Below, in pieces: positions 2,350 through 57,068 of a stretch of DNA of 63,048 nucleotides (within the stretch, counting starts at the first letter, position 1; every line of letters begins with the position of its first letter). Source of the DNA: a virus (taxonomy: Duplodnaviria > Caudoviricetes); IMG/VR virus record IMGVR_UViG_3300036884_000169, positions 1 to 63,048 of that record. One strand, given 5' to 3'. The notes under the pieces were generated by a model. The model worked only from the letters and a program-made list of their open reading frames with translations. It did no database searches and was not told where the DNA came from. The translations under genes were made by a program, and so were the position numbers.

Positions 2350-2633
2350 TCGCCCGCCTCCAATTTATCAATCTGGTCCAAGGTCCTGATTTCCTGGCAA
2401 TACTCACACCGGCAAATGTTATTCCGCTGCCGGATTGGACGCCATTTGTGCGGTTCGCCATTTGCGCATGGCAATACCCGTGCGGTGTAGGACGGAGGAT
2501 ATTCAATAGTGTAGCCAAACACCTTTTCACAGTTGGTGCACTTAATCTCATACAATTCGCATGGGTTATAAGCATCTTCTCCACTGGCTGACTGGTCATG
2601 ATCGTTGCAATACGGACAGGTTAAATCACTCAT
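2346..2633 (-). CDS. Small zinc-ribbon protein
   Basis: CPYC, CTNC and CEYC motifs. GGAGG RBS. ATGA overlaps at both ends. Confidence 0.7.
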   Translation of the reverse strand: MSDLTCPYCNDHDQSASGEDAYNPCELYEIKCTNCEKVFGYTIEYPPSYTARVLPCANGEPHKWRPIRQRNNICRCEYCQEIRTLDQIDKLEAGE

Positions 2634-3411
2634 TCTTGGCCTCCCCTGGCATTATCAAGCTTCTTTTCCCGGTAGTACTCAGCGCGACCAAGATCGTCTG
2701 GTTCGTTAGGTTCGTTAGGTTCGTTAGGTTCGTTACTGTCGGAAGCATCCGTAGTATCGTCATCATCGCCAGGAGTTTCCGGGCATCCGCTTGAATGCAG
2801 CCCACCCCAGCAATTGCATTCAGGGCAGCGTTTCATTTGTGTTTCTCCAATTGAAGCTTGAGCCGGAAAACCTGATTTTTCAGCGCAGATATTTCCGTGC
2901 CGGTCTTGGCCCTGGATGCTTTCAAAGCGCATTGGGGGCAATCCAAATAAGCGCTTGTCTCCTGGTCGTAAACCAGTCCGCATTCATCACATTTTGTCGT
3001 CATAATTGAGCCGCCTTTTCGTTTAGTTCAACGGCATACCGGTGCCAAAAATCCCCCATTTCCTGCTTATTTTCATGCCAACAGTTTATTGCAGCCCTGA
3101 TACACCAATTGGCTTTATGATACAGCTCTGTTTTACGTTTCTCTTTTCTAAAAAACATACACTATTACCCCCCTTTATGGGCGTGTGAAGTAGGCCGATC
3201 CTACCTTATTTCCGTTAGTGTCCAGCAATATTTTCATTGCGTCTTCTGCCATGAGGGAAGGGAGAACCTGCCCGGTAATTATCTGAGAGATTTCCGCTGC
3301 CTTGTCCTCATCGAAGGCGGCATTTTCACAGTTGATAACGATATGGTATGTCATTTTGATTCCTTCCTTTACCTAATAAGGCAATAATAAGCCAATTTTC
3401 GTCAATTATTA

Positions 3412-3726
3412 TTAGATTTCTTCAATGCCTGTCAAATTAAGTATGGCATTGACACTCTGGCGCTCCGCATCGTCCAAATCCTTGTAGTCCCGGATGACAC
3501 ATTGGGCCTCATCAGATAGTCCGACCATCCGGTGAAATACTGGCCCGATTTCGTCTAACGGCCCAGCAAGGAATGGTTGGCCGTCCACATAGATAGCAGT
3601 TGTATCTTCAAACTTGCTAATAGCAATCATTCCTAACTCCTGTTGAGCTTTGCAGCTCTGGCTTCCAATTTCTTTTTCTGCCCATAGGCGATAATAGTTC
3701 TGGACGTGTTGCAATACAGTGCCCAT
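3412..3726 (-). CDS. Hypothetical early protein
   Basis: ORF with GGGGAG RBS in the leftward gene run. Confidence 0.6.
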   Translation of the reverse strand: MGTVLQHVQNYYRLWAEKEIGSQSCKAQQELGMIAISKFEDTTAIYVDGQPFLAGPLDEIGPVFHRMVGLSDEAQCVIRDYKDLDDAERQSVNAILNLTGIEEI

Positions 3727-9581: not shown

Positions 9582-10223
9582 ATGGCAAAAGAAAAATTAG
9601 TTCGTCCAACCCTGCCCGAAAAAACCGACCCAGACTATGTAGAAGCGCTCGTTGATGCCTGTATTACTGCCTTTGAAAAGTTCGGCGACGATGGCATGTC
9701 CCTCAATTATATGGGGGTAGATGGAAAACTCAGGCCCATGGTCCTGGACAACCCACGCTACAAGCAAGAAACACGCAAGATCATGGCCGAGAAGTTTCTT
9801 GAAGAAATTGAAGAAATAGAGAGCATTTCAGAGACGCTAAAATCCGAGTCACCACGCGAATCAAACTATGATATTAGAAATCCGAAAGAGGCAGAAAGTT
9901 TTACCAAGGACATCAAGGACACCCTTACCCTTAGACTGAAAGTTGCTGATATGCGTCGCGATGTTTTGAGCATCACAAAGAATAAGGAAGTCGAAGAGAA
10001 CGACGCACTAAATATATTCTTCATATCGCTCACTGCCGAAGAGTTTGCAGCAATGGATAATGTAGAGATTCATGAGGGTACAGAAACGGCAGAGCTGACC
10101 AACAAAGAAAAAGAAAAAGCTGCAAAGGCTAAAAAACGATTTGGTGATGACGAAGAGGACAATGAGCCTGACCCATTCATCATCGCAGCCGACGGCTCTA
10201 TTGAAGAGATATTTACACAGTGA
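9582..10223 (+). CDS. terS: Probable terminase small subunit
   Basis: Lies directly upstream of terL and overlaps it (GTGA). Helical with an acidic tail. Called by position. Confidence 0.55.
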   Translation: MAKEKLVRPTLPEKTDPDYVEALVDACITAFEKFGDDGMSLNYMGVDGKLRPMVLDNPRYKQETRKIMAEKFLEEIEEIESISETLKSESPRESNYDIRNPKEAESFTKDIKDTLTLRLKVADMRRDVLSITKNKEVEENDALNIFFISLTAEEFAAMDNVEIHEGTETAELTNKEKEKAAKAKKRFGDDEEDNEPDPFIIAADGSIEEIFTQ

Positions 10224-12586
10224 AAAAGATAAAATTACTTAAACATCAAGGGCAATTTATTCAAGCACCTTTCTTGTTTATTAAACACCGATTTTTTATA
10301 CTATGCTGTGGCTACGGAGCCGGGAAATCAAGCGCAATATGCAAAGTAGTTCTACATTATGTAAAAATACTACAAGGTAAAACAGATACAGAAGGGCACA
10401 GCCCCGTAATTTGTCTTGGTGGTGTGACACTTTCGCACTTAGAAAAAACAACATTAGCAATGATAAAAGAAGACCTTGATGCCTCAAAAACTGTGTATAG
10501 ACACGACACAAAAAATAACACGATATTTATAGGTAATGTGCGCATCATTTTAGTATCACTTTCAGAACCAAGTAAGATAGTAGGTTTTAACGCTTATATA
10601 AGTGTTGGTGATGAAATAGACGATCTTGGAACAAGCACATCAGATGATCTTACATTTGAGGCAGTAAAAGCACTAAACGAACGAACACGGCAAGTCATAA
10701 AAGGGCTGCGCAAACCTGCACTTTTATTTGCTTCAACAAGCCAGGGTCAAAAGGGGCTGTACCGTGTCTATACACAATTCATAAAAACAGGGGCTGCATT
10801 CATACTTATTAGAGGAAGCACCCGAGACAACCCGCACCTTGATCCTGAATATGTAGAATCACTCTATAAAATGTACAATGAAGTCGAACGCAAAGTATTC
10901 CTGGAAGGTTATTTTCTGCCTATATCGACAGGGCGTGTATTTGGTGACTTCGATTGGGGGAGAAACTTTATCCATGTCGATATGGATCAGGAGATTGGAC
11001 CTGATGAAACGGTGTACTGGGCGCAGGACTTCAACACCGGGTACTTTCGAGGATGCACGGGGGTGGAACGCGGTGGGCGGATATACGTGGTGAAGGGGTA
11101 TGACTTTCCCGATATTCGAGAGGCACCCGCCGTCGTGCGGCATGACTTTCCACACAACAAAATTGTCTGGATTCCAGACACGACTGCCAAGGACCAAATC
11201 AGCCACTTCACCAAGGAGTTGCGCAAGCACCGGATTCATTGGATTCAACGTGGTAAAAATCCACTGGTCGAGGATAGCGCATTCCTGGTGAATAAATTAT
11301 TCTTTACGAAGCGGCTATTCTTTACAACCATGGCAAAAGATGTTGCCGAAGCCTGTGCACTGGCCCAACGTGATAAAAATGGGAAAATCCCCAAAGGGAT
11401 TGGGCCAAACAGCCCTATTCACTATTGCTTCGCAGGCCACACAAAAGTCACCACAGCCCGAGGGCAAGTACGGATCGACCGTGTACGAGTCGGTGACGAA
11501 GTACTTACCCGAGCCGGATGGAAAAAGGTGGAAGTATCGGCCTACATGGGCAAGCAGAAAACACGCCAGCTTGGGCTAACCCGTATCACTCCAGAGCACC
11601 CGGTATGGACCGAGGAACGTGGCATGACTCCAGCGTACTCCTTGACAGACAGCGAACGATTGCTTACAATGACCAAAGAGGACATTAAGCAATGGCAAAA
11701 GACAAAACGACAGGAAGATTTATTGCAGGGCGTCACCGACGAAATGTCGAGACTGTTGAGCAGTTTGGCCGAACGTGGTACCGCTACCCAGACGCGAGAG
11801 GCTGGTCTGATAGGCACTATTTCCGAAGTGGCCCGGTATGGCTTCACGTTTTTACTTGGGAATATTACAACGGACCTGTACCAGAAGGTTATGAAGTCCA
11901 TCACAAAGACGGGAATACTGCACACAACGAAGAAGGGAATATTGAATGTATTCCTGCGGAGTTACACCAGAAGCTTCCAAAACGCATTGACCTTACGAAA
12001 GCAAGAGAAAATCTTAACAGAATCAGACCCATCGCCGCAGCTTGGCACGGCAGCGAAGAAGGCAGACAATGGCATTCTGCGCATGGCAAGGAAGTGGCTG
12101 CGAGTAACGCAGGTAAAACTGTACTCAAAGAGTGTGGATATTGCGGTAGCAGCTACACAACACTCCAGGTCAAAGCCACCATCAGCAGGTTCTGTTCCAC
12201 CCTTTGTAAGAACAAGAGTCGATACCATTCAGACGTGGACCTGGAAACACGGACCTGTATCGTTTGCGGAAAAGCTTTTCAGACACACAAAAGAACGACT
12301 TCTATATGCTGCTCAAGCAGTTGTGCCGCGACTAACAGGTGGAAAAAGCGTCGAGAAAGTGTATGATATAAGCGTGGAAGGCCAGCACGAGTTCATCGCA
12401 GACGGCATTCTGGTGTCCAATTGTGACGGAGTTAGAATGTTATCATATTTCCTGGCATCAAATAAGCGTAGCCTACGGGACATCAGGCGTGTTACAATAG
12501 CCAGACACTTGGAAATGTACGAAGAAGAGGCAGCGATCACCGAACTGGACGGCGGCTACCGAGAGCTGAATCCAGAAGCCCTCTAA
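10220..12586 (+). CDS. terL: Terminase large subunit with intein
   Basis: Walker A GYGAGKS, Walker B VGDEID, DNPHL, QDFN, and a C-terminal H-Y/C-DGVR nuclease motif interrupted by the intein. Confidence 0.95.
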   Translation: MKKIKLLKHQGQFIQAPFLFIKHRFFILCCGYGAGKSSAICKVVLHYVKILQGKTDTEGHSPVICLGGVTLSHLEKTTLAMIKEDLDASKTVYRHDTKNNTIFIGNVRIILVSLSEPSKIVGFNAYISVGDEIDDLGTSTSDDLTFEAVKALNERTRQVIKGLRKPALLFASTSQGQKGLYRVYTQFIKTGAAFILIRGSTRDNPHLDPEYVESLYKMYNEVERKVFLEGYFLPISTGRVFGDFDWGRNFIHVDMDQEIGPDETVYWAQDFNTGYFRGCTGVERGGRIYVVKGYDFPDIREAPAVVRHDFPHNKIVWIPDTTAKDQISHFTKELRKHRIHWIQRGKNPLVEDSAFLVNKLFFTKRLFFTTMAKDVAEACALAQRDKNGKIPKGIGPNSPIHYCFAGHTKVTTARGQVRIDRVRVGDEVLTRAGWKKVEVSAYMGKQKTRQLGLTRITPEHPVWTEERGMTPAYSLTDSERLLTMTKEDIKQWQKTKRQEDLLQGVTDEMSRLLSSLAERGTATQTREAGLIGTISEVARYGFTFLLGNITTDLYQKVMKSITKTGILHTTKKGILNVFLRSYTRSFQNALTLRKQEKILTESDPSPQLGTAAKKADNGILRMARKWLRVTQVKLYSKSVDIAVAATQHSRSKPPSAGSVPPFVRTRVDTIQTWTWKHGPVSFAEKLFRHTKERLLYAAQAVVPRLTGGKSVEKVYDISVEGQHEFIADGILVSNCDGVRMLSYFLASNKRSLRDIRRVTIARHLEMYEEEAAITELDGGYRELNPEAL
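11426..12421 (+). mobile_element. Intein (332 aa) in the terminase nuclease domain
   Basis: Block A CFAGHTKVTT, block B TPEHPV, block F VYDISV, block G FIADGILVSN, followed by extein Cys+1. Confidence 0.93.
11692..12366 (+). CDS. HNH homing endonuclease with zinc fingers, overprinted in another frame inside the intein
   Basis: LH..W....GPVPEGYEVHHKDGN..N...N.EC motif and two CxxC...[FC]CS..C fingers. Has its own AGAGGA RBS. Confidence 0.88.
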   Translation: MAKDKTTGRFIAGRHRRNVETVEQFGRTWYRYPDARGWSDRHYFRSGPVWLHVFTWEYYNGPVPEGYEVHHKDGNTAHNEEGNIECIPAELHQKLPKRIDLTKARENLNRIRPIAAAWHGSEEGRQWHSAHGKEVAASNAGKTVLKECGYCGSSYTTLQVKATISRFCSTLCKNKSRYHSDVDLETRTCIVCGKAFQTHKRTTSICCSSSCAATNRWKKRRESV

Positions 12587-12615
12587 CCAAGCTTTTTTCT
12601 GCTAAGGGGAACACT

Positions 12616-14496
12616 ATGGCTTTGACGTGGTATCGAGAAGTTTGGCAAATACTAAACAGTGGAAAGACCAGCACCGGCAGAACGAAAGACGGTGCACGTG
12701 TCATAAACACCAACCACTTCAAGCCACTGCCGATGGACAAGCAGTTGGCAGTCAATGGCATCATCGAAGAGTACCAGTTAGGGCATGTTCGGCGGGTGCT
12801 GGGCAATCCTGACACCCTTTCCGATGTGAAAGCCAGGGCTGGGCGGCTCATGCCGCTGATCGTCAACAACTTCGGCTCGGGTGAAATGGCCAAACGGGTA
12901 CGGGACTCAATGATGACCCGCGACATAGCACCAATGGGCAGTAACCAAAACGGCGGGATTTCCAACATGAACTCCATGAGCGGGGTGTATGGACAAGACC
13001 CGGCCTTGAATAATCGGGTTAACCCAAATATTTGGATTTCCCCTATGGAAGCCGCAGCCGTCTATTCACAGAAAGGATTGCCAGAAACTATTATCCGAAA
13101 GAAAAGTCAGTCTATTCTCCTGAATGGGGTCAGGATCAAATGCAAAATGCTGTCTGCCGACCAGAATGACCGGATCGCCGACAGTATCTTGGCAACGGGG
13201 CTGGCATACAAGATTGCCGAAGTGGTTGCCAACTCGCTCACCCACGGCGGGGGACTTTTATATCCGAACTTCAAGAAGGATTCACCGGCCAGTTTTGGCA
13301 TGTCGATTACCGAGTTGGCCAAAGCCGGGATCATCGGAAAGAACTGCCTTGACTTCTACACGGCCATTGACCGGTGGAACGTAGTGCACATCCCAAACTG
13401 GAACCCCACTTCAAGAGACTTCCTGACTCCTGACCATTATTACGTGCCGTTCCTGGGCTGCGATGTGAAAGGTGCCCGGTGCGCACGAGTCATCACGGCC
13501 CCGCAGTCAGGATACTGGGGAGCGTTGATGACACTGGGCTGGGGAATATCCGATATTCCAGGCTGGATCGAGTCGGTCTACAATTACTACAACGTGATGG
13601 CAGCCGTTCCAAACATGATTAACCAGATGTCGATCCTGGCTCGTACCTTCAACGTCGATGGTTTAATGGCCACAGAAGGGGCGTCCATCATGGAAGCCAT
13701 CGACTTCGACGAGACGATCCGGGTCCGTCAGGCGTCCATCAACAACCCCATCAATATGGACGTTATCGGTGATTTGAAGGCTATTGACCGTGACTTTGCC
13801 CAGGTGCCTGAGCTGATCCGGCTGGTGCGCCAAGATGCTGCGGCTCGGGCTACCATACCAGAAGAGTTGCTGTGGTCCTCGGAGCGCGGGGCGTTTTCCA
13901 GCGGGGATTCCAGCGACAGTGCCTACGAGAAACAATCCGAGGGCACCCGGTACATCCATGTCGATGTGGCACACCAACTAAAAGCGGTGTCCCAATTGGC
14001 AGTTATCAATGCCCTGGGATTGGACCGCGACGTAATTGCGGCACTTCCCTACGTCACCATTTCCTTCGACAACCCGCGTGTCACCAATGCCAAGGACAAG
14101 TCTGATATTGCCGCGAAGATCACCAAAGGATTCTTCGATCTGGTGGCGGGTGGCTTGCCGGAAGACGCAGCACTGGACATCAGCCGTCAGTTTGCCGACG
14201 ACGAGTTCTTTATCGACCCGAAGGTTATGGAAGATGTACGCCGCCGCCAGGGTATTAAGGACGAACGCGAAGCCGAGAAGCACCAGAAAGAAATGGAGCT
14301 GATGGGCAAACAGATCGAAACTGCCGGTGCGCCACCTACTGCCCCTGGGGGTAAGCCCAAGGGGAAAGCAGCCCCAGCCTCCGCAGGCGAAAAGAAAGGG
14401 CACAGTTACAAAGACCCGCTGGAACAAAAGCAACACGAAAAAGTAGGAGCGAATAAAAAACAAGGTATCCAGAAAGCACAGGCGAAAGTACCGTAA
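12616..14496 (+). CDS. Portal protein (DUF1073-like)
   Basis: Follows terL. Size and motifs (GWG.S, AA...IP...L...GAFSSGD) fit this portal class. Confidence 0.8.
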   Translation: MALTWYREVWQILNSGKTSTGRTKDGARVINTNHFKPLPMDKQLAVNGIIEEYQLGHVRRVLGNPDTLSDVKARAGRLMPLIVNNFGSGEMAKRVRDSMMTRDIAPMGSNQNGGISNMNSMSGVYGQDPALNNRVNPNIWISPMEAAAVYSQKGLPETIIRKKSQSILLNGVRIKCKMLSADQNDRIADSILATGLAYKIAEVVANSLTHGGGLLYPNFKKDSPASFGMSITELAKAGIIGKNCLDFYTAIDRWNVVHIPNWNPTSRDFLTPDHYYVPFLGCDVKGARCARVITAPQSGYWGALMTLGWGISDIPGWIESVYNYYNVMAAVPNMINQMSILARTFNVDGLMATEGASIMEAIDFDETIRVRQASINNPINMDVIGDLKAIDRDFAQVPELIRLVRQDAAARATIPEELLWSSERGAFSSGDSSDSAYEKQSEGTRYIHVDVAHQLKAVSQLAVINALGLDRDVIAALPYVTISFDNPRVTNAKDKSDIAAKITKGFFDLVAGGLPEDAALDISRQFADDEFFIDPKVMEDVRRRQGIKDEREAEKHQKEMELMGKQIETAGAPPTAPGGKPKGKAAPASAGEKKGHSYKDPLEQKQHEKVGANKKQGIQKAQAKVP

Positions 14497-57039: not shown

Positions 57040-57068
57040 TTGACATTCGGAGGTTGTGAACGTACAAT
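57040..57068 (+). promoter_or_regulatory. Sigma70-type promoter of the second fibre cassette
   Basis: TTGACA-17 nt-TACAAT. Confidence 0.7.

Follow-up and report, generated by a model that had tools for sequence, protein, structure and literature searches.

In the gene for the large terminase subunit (TerL) of a peat-soil phage, an insertion encodes two proteins in different reading frames: an intein in the TerL frame, and an HNH endonuclease in a frame shifted by two nucleotides. The DNA studied, here called the window, is the whole 63,048-base virus record IMGVR_UViG_3300036884_000169, complete or nearly so, of a phage of about 63 kb. The most probable reading of its sequence (at roughly 0.8) is a composite selfish element in terL, made up of a class-1-type intein and a complete HNH_3 homing endonuclease of the free-standing type overprinted in the +2 frame. 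Established here are the insertion's anatomy, its recurrence in other phages, the purging of stop codons from the TerL frame, purifying selection on the HNH frame and the fact that intein and HNH are present or absent together. The first-pass annotation, made from the letters alone, had proposed such a two-frame selfish element; all of the computational evidence fits the proposal, in which splicing and independent translation would take place, and its general concept had already been published. The element's words were present in 20 runs labelled as peat metagenomes, belonging to 17 studies; five of the runs are marked as candidates for the origin of the DNA studied.

Anatomy of the interrupted terminase gene

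The features of the locus are listed below. A3 is an alignment of 50 TerL proteins (the window and 49 homologues), A2 is the alignment of HNH homologues used for conserved columns, L009, L010 and L011 are related viral contigs with an intein-less TerL, AF2 is AlphaFold2, and pLDDT is its models' predicted local distance difference test score.

10220-12586, + strand: TerL open reading frame (ORF), 788 aa, matching phrog_2 (terminase large subunit, 7.9e-28)
10220-11425, + strand: N-extein of TerL, residues 1-402, ending ...SPIHY; an ORF aligning with intein-less L009-L011
11426-12421, + strand: intein, 332 aa in the TerL frame, Cys1...TPEH (Thr55, His58)...VYD...LVSN; missing from L009, L010 and L011; Pfam Vint, Hint_2 and Intein_splicing
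11426-11770, + strand: N-terminal splicing (Hint) part, approximately intein residues 1-115 (AF2 on A3; Foldseek 6qaz)
11771-12310, + strand: linker in the TerL frame, approximately intein residues 116-295, the stop-free shifted-frame "shadow" of the HNH gene (low pLDDT; no Pfam family)
12311-12421, + strand: C-terminal splicing part with blocks F and G, KVYDISVEGQHEFIADGILVSN (pLDDT; conserved in 9/9 loci)
12422-12586, + strand: C-extein of TerL, its +1 Cys being TGT at 12422-12424 (comparison with intein-less relatives)
11686-11688, + strand: TAA that shuts the HNH frame to read-in from upstream, 3 nt ahead of the ATG
11692-12366, + strand: nested HNH_3 endonuclease ORF, 224 aa, +2 frame (Pfam HNH_3, phrog_15471, homologues, AF2)
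11899-11904, 11938-11940 and 11965-11967, + strand: HNH motif residues His70/His71, Asn83 and His92 (conserved columns)
12133-12324, + strand: two C-terminal Cys4 zinc ribbons (A2 columns; pLDDT blocks of 93-98 over residues 131-220)
12133-12207, + strand: zinc ribbon 1, C148, C151, C168 and C172 (invariant or at least 90% conserved in A2)
12256-12324, + strand: zinc ribbon 2, C189, C192, C207 and C211 (invariant or at least 90% conserved in A2)
12364-12366, + strand: HNH stop TGA, spanning TAT GAT (Tyr-Asp) of the block F VYD

The intein starts with CFAGHTKV... directly after Tyr402, its residue 1 being Cys403 of TerL, and ends with ...GILVSN before Cys-Asp-Gly-Val-Arg-Met. The insertion point is the nuclease-motif site of TerL, between SPIHY and C-DGVRM. 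The intein-less TerL proteins of L009, L010 and L011 are 456-459 aa long, with exteins that share 85, 79 and 68% identity with those of the window, and they align with it end to end apart from the 332-residue block, which confirms the annotated interruption between Tyr402 and the Cys. In Pfam searches the N-terminal end of the insert matched Vint (6.2e-07, 29.8 bits, cut-off 27) and, under the cut-off, Hint_2 (1.2e-05), and the C-terminal end matched Intein_splicing weakly and under the cut-off (1.8e-4). Cys1, Thr55 and His58 (the Thr-x-x-His of block B) and Asn332 are invariant in all 50 A3 rows, and the C-terminal Asn is followed by Cys at +1, where class-1 inteins have Cys, Ser or Thr. A Pfam profile search at E<=1 detected no LAGLIDADG, HNH or other nuclease family in the TerL-frame insert, as the first-pass annotation had noticed by eye, and in 11200-12700 Rfam gave no match at all at E<=1, hence no group I or II intron.

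The nested ORF was found as first described, 224 aa and shifted by two nucleotides inside the intein. It matched HNH_3 (PF13392; 2.9e-11, 43.3 bits, cut-off 24.8) and the HNH endonuclease family phrog_15471 (4.3e-29), and PF13392 was present in all 56 HNH homologues collected. Besides HNH_3 only two weak zinc-finger families were matched at E<=1, and Endonuclease_7 was not among the matches. The profile search of both frames that had been suggested as a check thus returned intein families in the TerL frame and HNH_3 in the nested frame only. The window HNH keeps every invariant A2 column (H70, H71, W118, S121, G124 and four Cys) and most of those that are at least 90% conserved, including N79, N83, H92 and four more Cys; it differs from the consensus at positions 78 and 84. 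The full HNH motif and the two Cys fingers of the earlier description accordingly fall in invariant or at least 90% conserved columns, and the stop codon was likewise located over the Tyr-Asp codons of block F.

Structure models were made for both frames. The AF2 model of the intein was built with five flanking residues on each side from 49 homologous TerL proteins, so that model residue n is intein residue n-5. Roughly 105 residues at the start of the intein and 30 at its end have a pLDDT above 90. By blocks of ten residues the values are 83-98 up to model residue 110, 80 for 111-120, 35-70 in the linker (below 50 in 132-171, 209-221, 236-240, 249-280 and 287-296) and 72, 94, 96 and 89 in the C-terminal splicing part. 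A Foldseek search gave six matches in the Protein Data Bank (PDB) at E<=0.001, all of them mini-inteins (three distinct ones and variants), of which gp41-1 (6qaz) was the best (E 5.4e-05, probability 1.00) and Ssp DnaB and NrdJ-1 came next. A Hint fold, that is, a mini-intein, is thereby predicted for the insert's two ends. The AF2 model of the HNH protein, made from an alignment of 52 homologues, has a mean pLDDT of 92.6, lower in residues 1-20 (67-68), and a predicted template modelling score of 0.56, with several domains. A profile search against PDB sequences placed the homing endonuclease I-HmuI (1u3e) first, weakly (E 0.0035), and Foldseek with the whole HNH model gave no PDB match at E<=0.001, 1u3e being eighth (E 1.2). 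In the predicted models the folded HNH body overlies the disordered linker. The floppy and poorly conserved N-terminal tail of HNH overlies the last 26 or so codons of the N-terminal Hint part, and only the last 18 or so HNH codons (helix 209-223) overlie folded intein, namely the first codons of the C-terminal splicing part.

The coexistence of two open frames over 225 codons, another of the original observations, is beyond chance. The TerL frame contains no stop across the HNH ORF, where back-translations of the HNH protein with phage codon usage have a mean of 5.37. Zero stops occurred in 12 of 20,000 such back-translations, in 121 of 20,000 synonymous-codon shuffles and in 16 of 20,000 codon-order shuffles. 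The third frame of the overlap has 12 stops. Codon-usage scoring in the overlap failed to separate the TerL and HNH frames (0.074 vs -0.104 per codon).

Two compensating indels from sequencing or assembly, concealing an ordinary in-frame HNH intein, would produce a similar picture, and the first-pass annotation had named them beforehand as its refutation. The nuclease is in frame as a norm for inteins, as stated in the introduction of a preprint on actinobacteriophage inteins (10.1101/2025.01.02.630785), and the database protein P0057 has N-extein, N-intein and HNH in one frame. The cluster of TerL sequences at 90% identity, however, holds 12 members from four sources (ENA, JGI/IMG, NCBI and Logan), and the identical 788-aa reading is found in ten of them; the remaining two are a form of 708 aa truncated at the N-terminus and a fragment of 305 aa. 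Contigs of four runs showed no indel and four substitutions over 11300-12600, a region covered in 30 of 30 bins by run X14 and in 19, 18 and 11 bins by X15, X17 and X18. These last three, in which the element has a low share, cover it in fragments, with almost no differences. The HNH frame is shut by the TAA 3 nt ahead of its ATG, the +2 offset is repeated in eight other loci including four finished phage genomes, and P0057 stops at the HNH stop without an intein C-terminus, hence it is not a canonical in-frame intein. An artefact of this kind has next to no probability.

Recurrence of the layout and other arrangements of the nuclease

A tblastn search of 50,697 phage records with the HNH protein matched 30 records, several of them under genes annotated as terminase large subunit. 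The nested layout was found in Tetrasphaera phage TJE1, Acinetobacter phage Highwayman, Clostridium phage phiCDHM19 and Rhodobacteraceae phage LS06-2018-MD07 (MD07), in each of which TerL is a single open frame of 682-799 codons with HNH nested at +2. The hosts of these phages belong to Actinobacteria, Proteobacteria and Firmicutes. The same layout was present in four metagenome loci (L019, L020, L021 and L024), so that an open TerL frame with HNH at +2 is found in 9/9 DNA-verified loci, the window included. Two further candidates, L023 and L012, were rejected as unrelated inteins in GyrA and in ribonucleotide reductase. Over the nested HNH of the four named phages the annotation reads only "terminase large subunit", and such nuclease genes are in practice missed by annotation.

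The inteins of the nine loci are 270-332 aa long, with the T-x-x-H of block B at residues 55-61. The insertion is in every case at the same TerL nuclease motif (after H or D, before C/S-D...R-Y), across TerL proteins of differing Pfam families: at least two, Terminase_3 and Terminase_6, carry these inteins, in phages of three bacterial phyla. The first HNH start codon lies within intein codons 80-93 in eight of nine loci, the exception being L024 with its first ATG at codon 29. In six of nine loci the HNH stop, over the Tyr/Phe-Asp/Asn of block F, ends exactly 55 nt upstream of the intein's final base; in the other three this distance is 43, 40 and 37 nt. The window HNH is 34-37% identical to the nested HNH of five of the other eight loci. 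Motifs resembling a Shine-Dalgarno (SD) sequence precede the HNH start by 7-13 nt in five of nine loci, namely in the window, in phiCDHM19 (AAAGGAG), in MD07 (GGAGG), in L024 (AGGAGAGG) and in L019 (GGAGG, 13 nt away).

The layout may be considerably more common. Among 159 candidate proteins, 31 matched the linker "shadow" peptide alone (E<=1e-3, Z=1000), with no match in each of five shuffles, and no in-frame HNH family was found among the 50 A3 rows. These matches suggest many more nested cases, known from proteins alone. Closer DNA relatives were not recovered: blastn of the terL gene against the phage collection gave no match, an exact-pattern scan of viral contigs with HNH gave no relative, and a metagenome scan for close DNA relatives with the element returned distant loci only.

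Tentatively, and at slightly less than even odds, we propose that overprinting in these inteins is an ancient design, stable and widespread, and no brief accident of invasion. In this design the HNH would always be at +2, its start just after block B and its stop drawn from block F codons, with structured parts over unstructured ones, and in the window there would in addition be an own host-type promoter and an AUG-masking hairpin; if true, the nuclease would be made on a schedule separate from that of the late terminase.

In Clostridium phage phiCD119 (L007 201-2595) TerL is annotated as three ORFs (ter1, ter2 and ORF3), and the nested HNH frame is open for only 184 codons; its close relative phiCDHM19 has one TerL ORF of 799 aa. 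The breaks in phiCD119 are either real or errors of an old sequence.

The same HNH family also occurs outside inteins. All seven free-standing homologues examined adjoin terminase genes: between terL and the portal gene in SN1, EauM23, PAE1, CL2 and Poludnitsa, beside terL in PhiSTP1, and upstream of terS in BP10. Together with the known occurrence of HNH genes beside cos sites and terminase genes, described in two papers (PMC3592412; PMC11855218), this position favours a different role, in which the HNH is a packaging helper of the terminase and lies in terL for co-expression and not for homing. Against such a role, no HNH homologue was detected (E<=0.01) in any of the three intein-less relatives rated 95-100% complete, the window record serving as a positive control (1.2e-161). 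The protein is, moreover, an HNH_3 with two zinc ribbons whose closest solved relative by profile is the weakly matched I-HmuI, and its distribution is patchy within one genus, being free-standing in Acinetobacter phage BP10 and nested in Highwayman. The W50-stop variants described below, which put null alleles in circulation in the population, already suggest that the HNH is not needed. We consider the helper role distinctly improbable and continue with the selfish element.

The two Acinetobacter phages are a candidate pair for tracing the movement of the gene. In BP10 (L003 2495-3136) TerL is without the intein and the HNH stands free, upstream of terS, whereas Highwayman (L002 2498-3145) has the intein with the nested HNH; the two HNH proteins are 51% identical and the TerL C-termini are closely similar. 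A third arrangement is seen in Vibrio phages 1.238.A and 1.245.O, where a related HNH (28% identical to that of the window) lies between two separate ORFs of a fractured TerL (L006 and L008 2471-3461): an ORF with N-extein and N-intein ends at 2609, the HNH of 236 aa occupies 2495-3205 and an ORF for a "hint domain protein" occupies 3144-3461. The HNH is not annotated in either Vibrio record. In P0057 (796 aa, an ENA metagenome protein) N-extein, N-intein and HNH are joined in one frame that ends at the HNH stop without the intein C-terminus; it may represent an assembly error or a variant that is frameshifted or split.

The frame equivalent to that of TerL contains 12, 1, 11, 4, 10 and 8 stops in six free-standing HNH genes, 14 in one split Vibrio form and none in each of five nested genes. 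This frame is open only where it is needed. In a tree of 18 HNH proteins 10 of the 15 inner branches remain open, and the tree is compatible with one origin of nesting as well as with several; a group with 89/89 support unites the nested HNH of Highwayman and L019 with the free-standing one of BP10. In this poorly resolved tree most nested HNH proteins have longer end branches (0.68-4.93, above 1.5 in six of nine) than the free-standing ones (0.12-1.54), and overprinting may speed or distort the evolution of HNH.

Selection, expression and proposed working of the element

Selection in the two frames was compared using P0059, a 790-aa protein known from one Logan contig, whose exteins are 81% identical to those of the window and whose intein has the same length and site. 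In the TerL frame the splicing ends of the two inteins are 70% (62/89) and 84% (16/19) identical, and the overlap (codons 492-715) is 34% identical (76/224) without gaps. Nucleotide changes were inferred by pairing each window codon with the nearest codon for the P0059 residue. The single-step differences were distributed over the codon positions as follows.

Overlap (n = 90): TerL position 2 (HNH position 3, wobble) 74.0; position 1 12.3; position 3 3.7
N-extein (n = 44): position 2 14.5; position 1 22.2; position 3 7.3

The contrast between overlap and N-extein is significant (Fisher p 1e-6). Of the 87 unambiguous single steps 67 are synonymous in HNH and all alter the TerL-frame residue, and of the 74 steps at the wobble position 67 are synonymous in HNH, where 61% is expected by chance. 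The test used a relative known only as protein, is blind to TerL-synonymous changes and omitted 58 codon pairs needing two or three changes; within these limits purifying selection acts on the HNH frame, and in the overlap the TerL frame is selected only to stay open. The comparison of selection per frame that the first-pass annotation had proposed thus found constraint on the HNH frame against P0059, in so far as changes inferred from one protein relative can give it.

Beside these limits, several observations weigh against the composite selfish element. The penultimate residue of the intein is Ser331, as had been noticed at first, and across the nine nested loci this residue is Ser in five and His in four; His is usual at this position in inteins and not universal. 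At +1 the intein-less relatives have Val (GTC or GTT) and the window Cys (TGT), and no close empty target site was found because the empty alleles carry Val where the intein needs Cys. An extein tree of five rows had no resolved branching and gave no support for horizontal spread. Three single-nucleotide polymorphisms (SNPs) detected at read level inside the ORF (V19A, W50R and I84L) all change HNH, and two of the three are TerL-synonymous; this recent polymorphism gives no hint of constraint on HNH. In three of the 12 cluster members TerL carries Gly541Ser, which by parsimony turns Trp50 of HNH into a stop, since 11840 G>A is the only single-base route; because such W50-stop alleles occur, the nuclease seems dispensable, and some of the population may carry it in a state of decay. 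On the side of expression, the promoter described below is a consensus match only, the whole 101-nt fold around the HNH start is no better than shuffles (z -1.03; 26 of 200 fold as well), and two RNA runs contain only 0.06-0.09 of the element's words.

Taken to its end, the variation could mean that the nested ORF is a decaying relic of a free-standing gene that invaded a mini-intein, with the nuclease no longer made or active and only the TerL frame selected. The parsimonious W50 stop in three of 12 cluster members and the three SNPs, all nonsynonymous in HNH and two of them silent in TerL, agree with such a decay, which is also expected to be fast once homing ceases according to the actinobacteriophage preprint (10.1101/2025.01.02.630785). 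The window copy is, on the other hand, of full length, has all invariant catalytic and zinc residues and is modelled at a pLDDT of 92.6; at the deeper divergence to P0059 the 67 of 87 inferred differences are HNH-synonymous; and the start codon and SD are kept, in a layout common to nine loci despite an HNH identity of 34-37%. A relic is therefore unlikely, and some present-day HNH copies may be inactive. Within the selfish-element reading the nuclease appears dispensable, behaving as a selfish gene able to decay without harm to TerL, and such dispensability also argues against the packaging-helper role.

Candidate signals for separate expression of the HNH lie within the intein coding region.

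11642-11670, + strand: sigma-70-like promoter match TTGACA-17-TACAAT, 11 of 12 consensus positions
11659-11693, + strand: possible hairpin in which AUUGCUUA (11659-11666) pairs with UAAGCAAU (11686-11693), from the minimum free energy fold
11677-11682, + strand: SD-like AGAGGA, 9 nt upstream of the HNH ATG

The ribosome binding site claimed for the nested ORF was located at this last position. A transcript from the promoter match would start near the SD. The candidate hairpin covers the A and U of the AUG and would be possible only in read-through terL RNA, because its 5' arm precedes the predicted transcript start. Sites with at least 11 of 12 consensus positions number six on both strands of the whole window, against 0.82 expected from shuffles. 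The five others, at 57040 (+), 43776 (-), 32257 (-), 7837 (-) and 3435 (-), are probably host-type promoters of the phage, and the site at 57040 has hexamers and spacer identical to those upstream of HNH. The HNH gene that lies within the split nrdA of phage Aeh1 is described as having a comparable two-level control (PMC2677866).

Production of the nuclease by a ribosomal frameshift off the TerL frame, fused to the N-terminal half of the intein and without an initiation of its own, is very improbable. P0057 offers a natural reading as an N-intein-HNH fusion, and in TJE1 no stop interrupts the HNH frame over 270 nt upstream of its first ATG, which has no clear SD. In the window, by contrast, the HNH frame has a TAA 3 nt ahead of the ATG and an SD at the correct spacing, and in seven of nine loci a stop occurs within 30 nt upstream of the HNH start.

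The composite element would work as follows. Ribosomes reading through TerL would produce a 788-aa precursor, in which the insert ends would fold to a mini-intein with the linker of about 180 residues as a disordered loop. Splicing would then yield a TerL of 456 aa; that it takes place we infer from the essential nature of TerL together with its frame being kept open. The HNH would be translated separately from its own SD and ATG, possibly with its own sigma-70-type promoter and with an AUG-masking hairpin in read-through terL mRNA. In a mixed infection the HNH would cut the intein-less terL, and repair would copy in the intein, the HNH and the +1 Cys codon.

Relation to known systems and minor observations

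The 2025 preprint on actinobacteriophage inteins (10.1101/2025.01.02.630785) describes, in the parts available, four non-canonical layouts, among them inteins with an endonuclease VII-like nuclease (IPR004211) in "reading frame 3"; HNH is listed in those parts only as an in-frame type. As in these inteins, the nuclease ORF of the window lies between the splicing blocks on the same strand in the third frame with the host frame open, TerL is among the hosts, the in-frame stretch is without recognisable structure and an invasion by a free-standing nuclease has been proposed. The nuclease of the window differs in being an HNH_3 with two zinc ribbons and not endonuclease VII-like, and the hosts extend beyond actinophages to Acinetobacter, Clostridium and Rhodobacteraceae phages and the peat virus. 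The ShiLan domain, reported by the same group, is a hidden HNH read out of frame within the DNA methylase of a mycobacteriophage (Arsenault et al., Genes 2025, PMC11855218). It likewise combines HNH and zinc fingers in the third frame with a stop-free insertion in the host frame, a stop at the end of the insertion and a patchy distribution. ShiLan has no detectable splicing domain, stays as a loop and had no ribosome binding site found, whereas the insert of the window is an intein with an SD. The window element joins both, a true intein and a hidden third-frame HNH_3, and together with its relatives it widens the layout to phages of Proteobacteria and Firmicutes.

In fractured genes, split inteins have a free-standing nuclease between their halves (Dassa et al. 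2009, PMC2677866). These genes share with the window a free-standing-type nuclease at the nuclease-insertion point of the intein, a 3' end overlapping the downstream intein part, possible 5' hairpins and a known terminase case, and the HNH family of the window itself takes the fractured form in Vibrio phages 1.238.A and 1.245.O. The window TerL is unlike them in being unsplit, one ORF of 788 aa running through the nuclease gene without a stop, and in its HNH nuclease, those of the loci of Dassa et al. being GIY-YIG and Vsr-like (PMC2677866). Like canonical inteins, the element has a Hint domain, interrupts an essential gene at a conserved catalytic motif and codes for a nuclease between blocks B and F. 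The nuclease of a canonical intein belongs to the intein polypeptide itself and is freed by splicing, whereas here it would be a separate polypeptide from another frame. A literature search yielded no account of an HNH_3 nuclease overprinted in a terminase intein, the supplementary tables of the preprint, which may list more types, being outside that search. The out-of-frame intein nuclease is thus known already, and new are the breadth of the layout, the fixed placement of start and stop, the per-frame substitution counts and the candidate expression signals.

One HNH family is found free-standing by terL, nested out of frame within an unbroken intein, and lodged between the two parts of a split one, and offers living intermediates for intein origins of the "splicing first, nuclease later" kind within one nuclease family. 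The overlap is a clean natural case of dual coding over 225 codons, with one frame only kept open and the other kept as protein, and is useful for testing gene finders and methods of overlap detection. The predicted compact mini-intein, tolerating an unstructured insert of about 180 residues, may be of interest to protein engineers.

Two further features of the window were noticed. The 5' third of terL (window 10001-11000) has a G+C content of 0.40, compared with 0.51 in 11001-13000, and its DNA identity to L009 is 62-65%, compared with 71-82% further on (columns 200-299 have 74%, the 3' end 67%); this low-G+C, low-identity third may be a recombination mosaic. In 490-2490, where the G+C content is 0.48-0.54, long ORFs overlap on both strands.

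490-1362, + strand: overlapping ORF
618-1424, - strand: overlapping ORF
1483-2349, - strand: overlapping ORF
1556-2389, + strand: overlapping ORF
1684-2490, + strand: overlapping ORF

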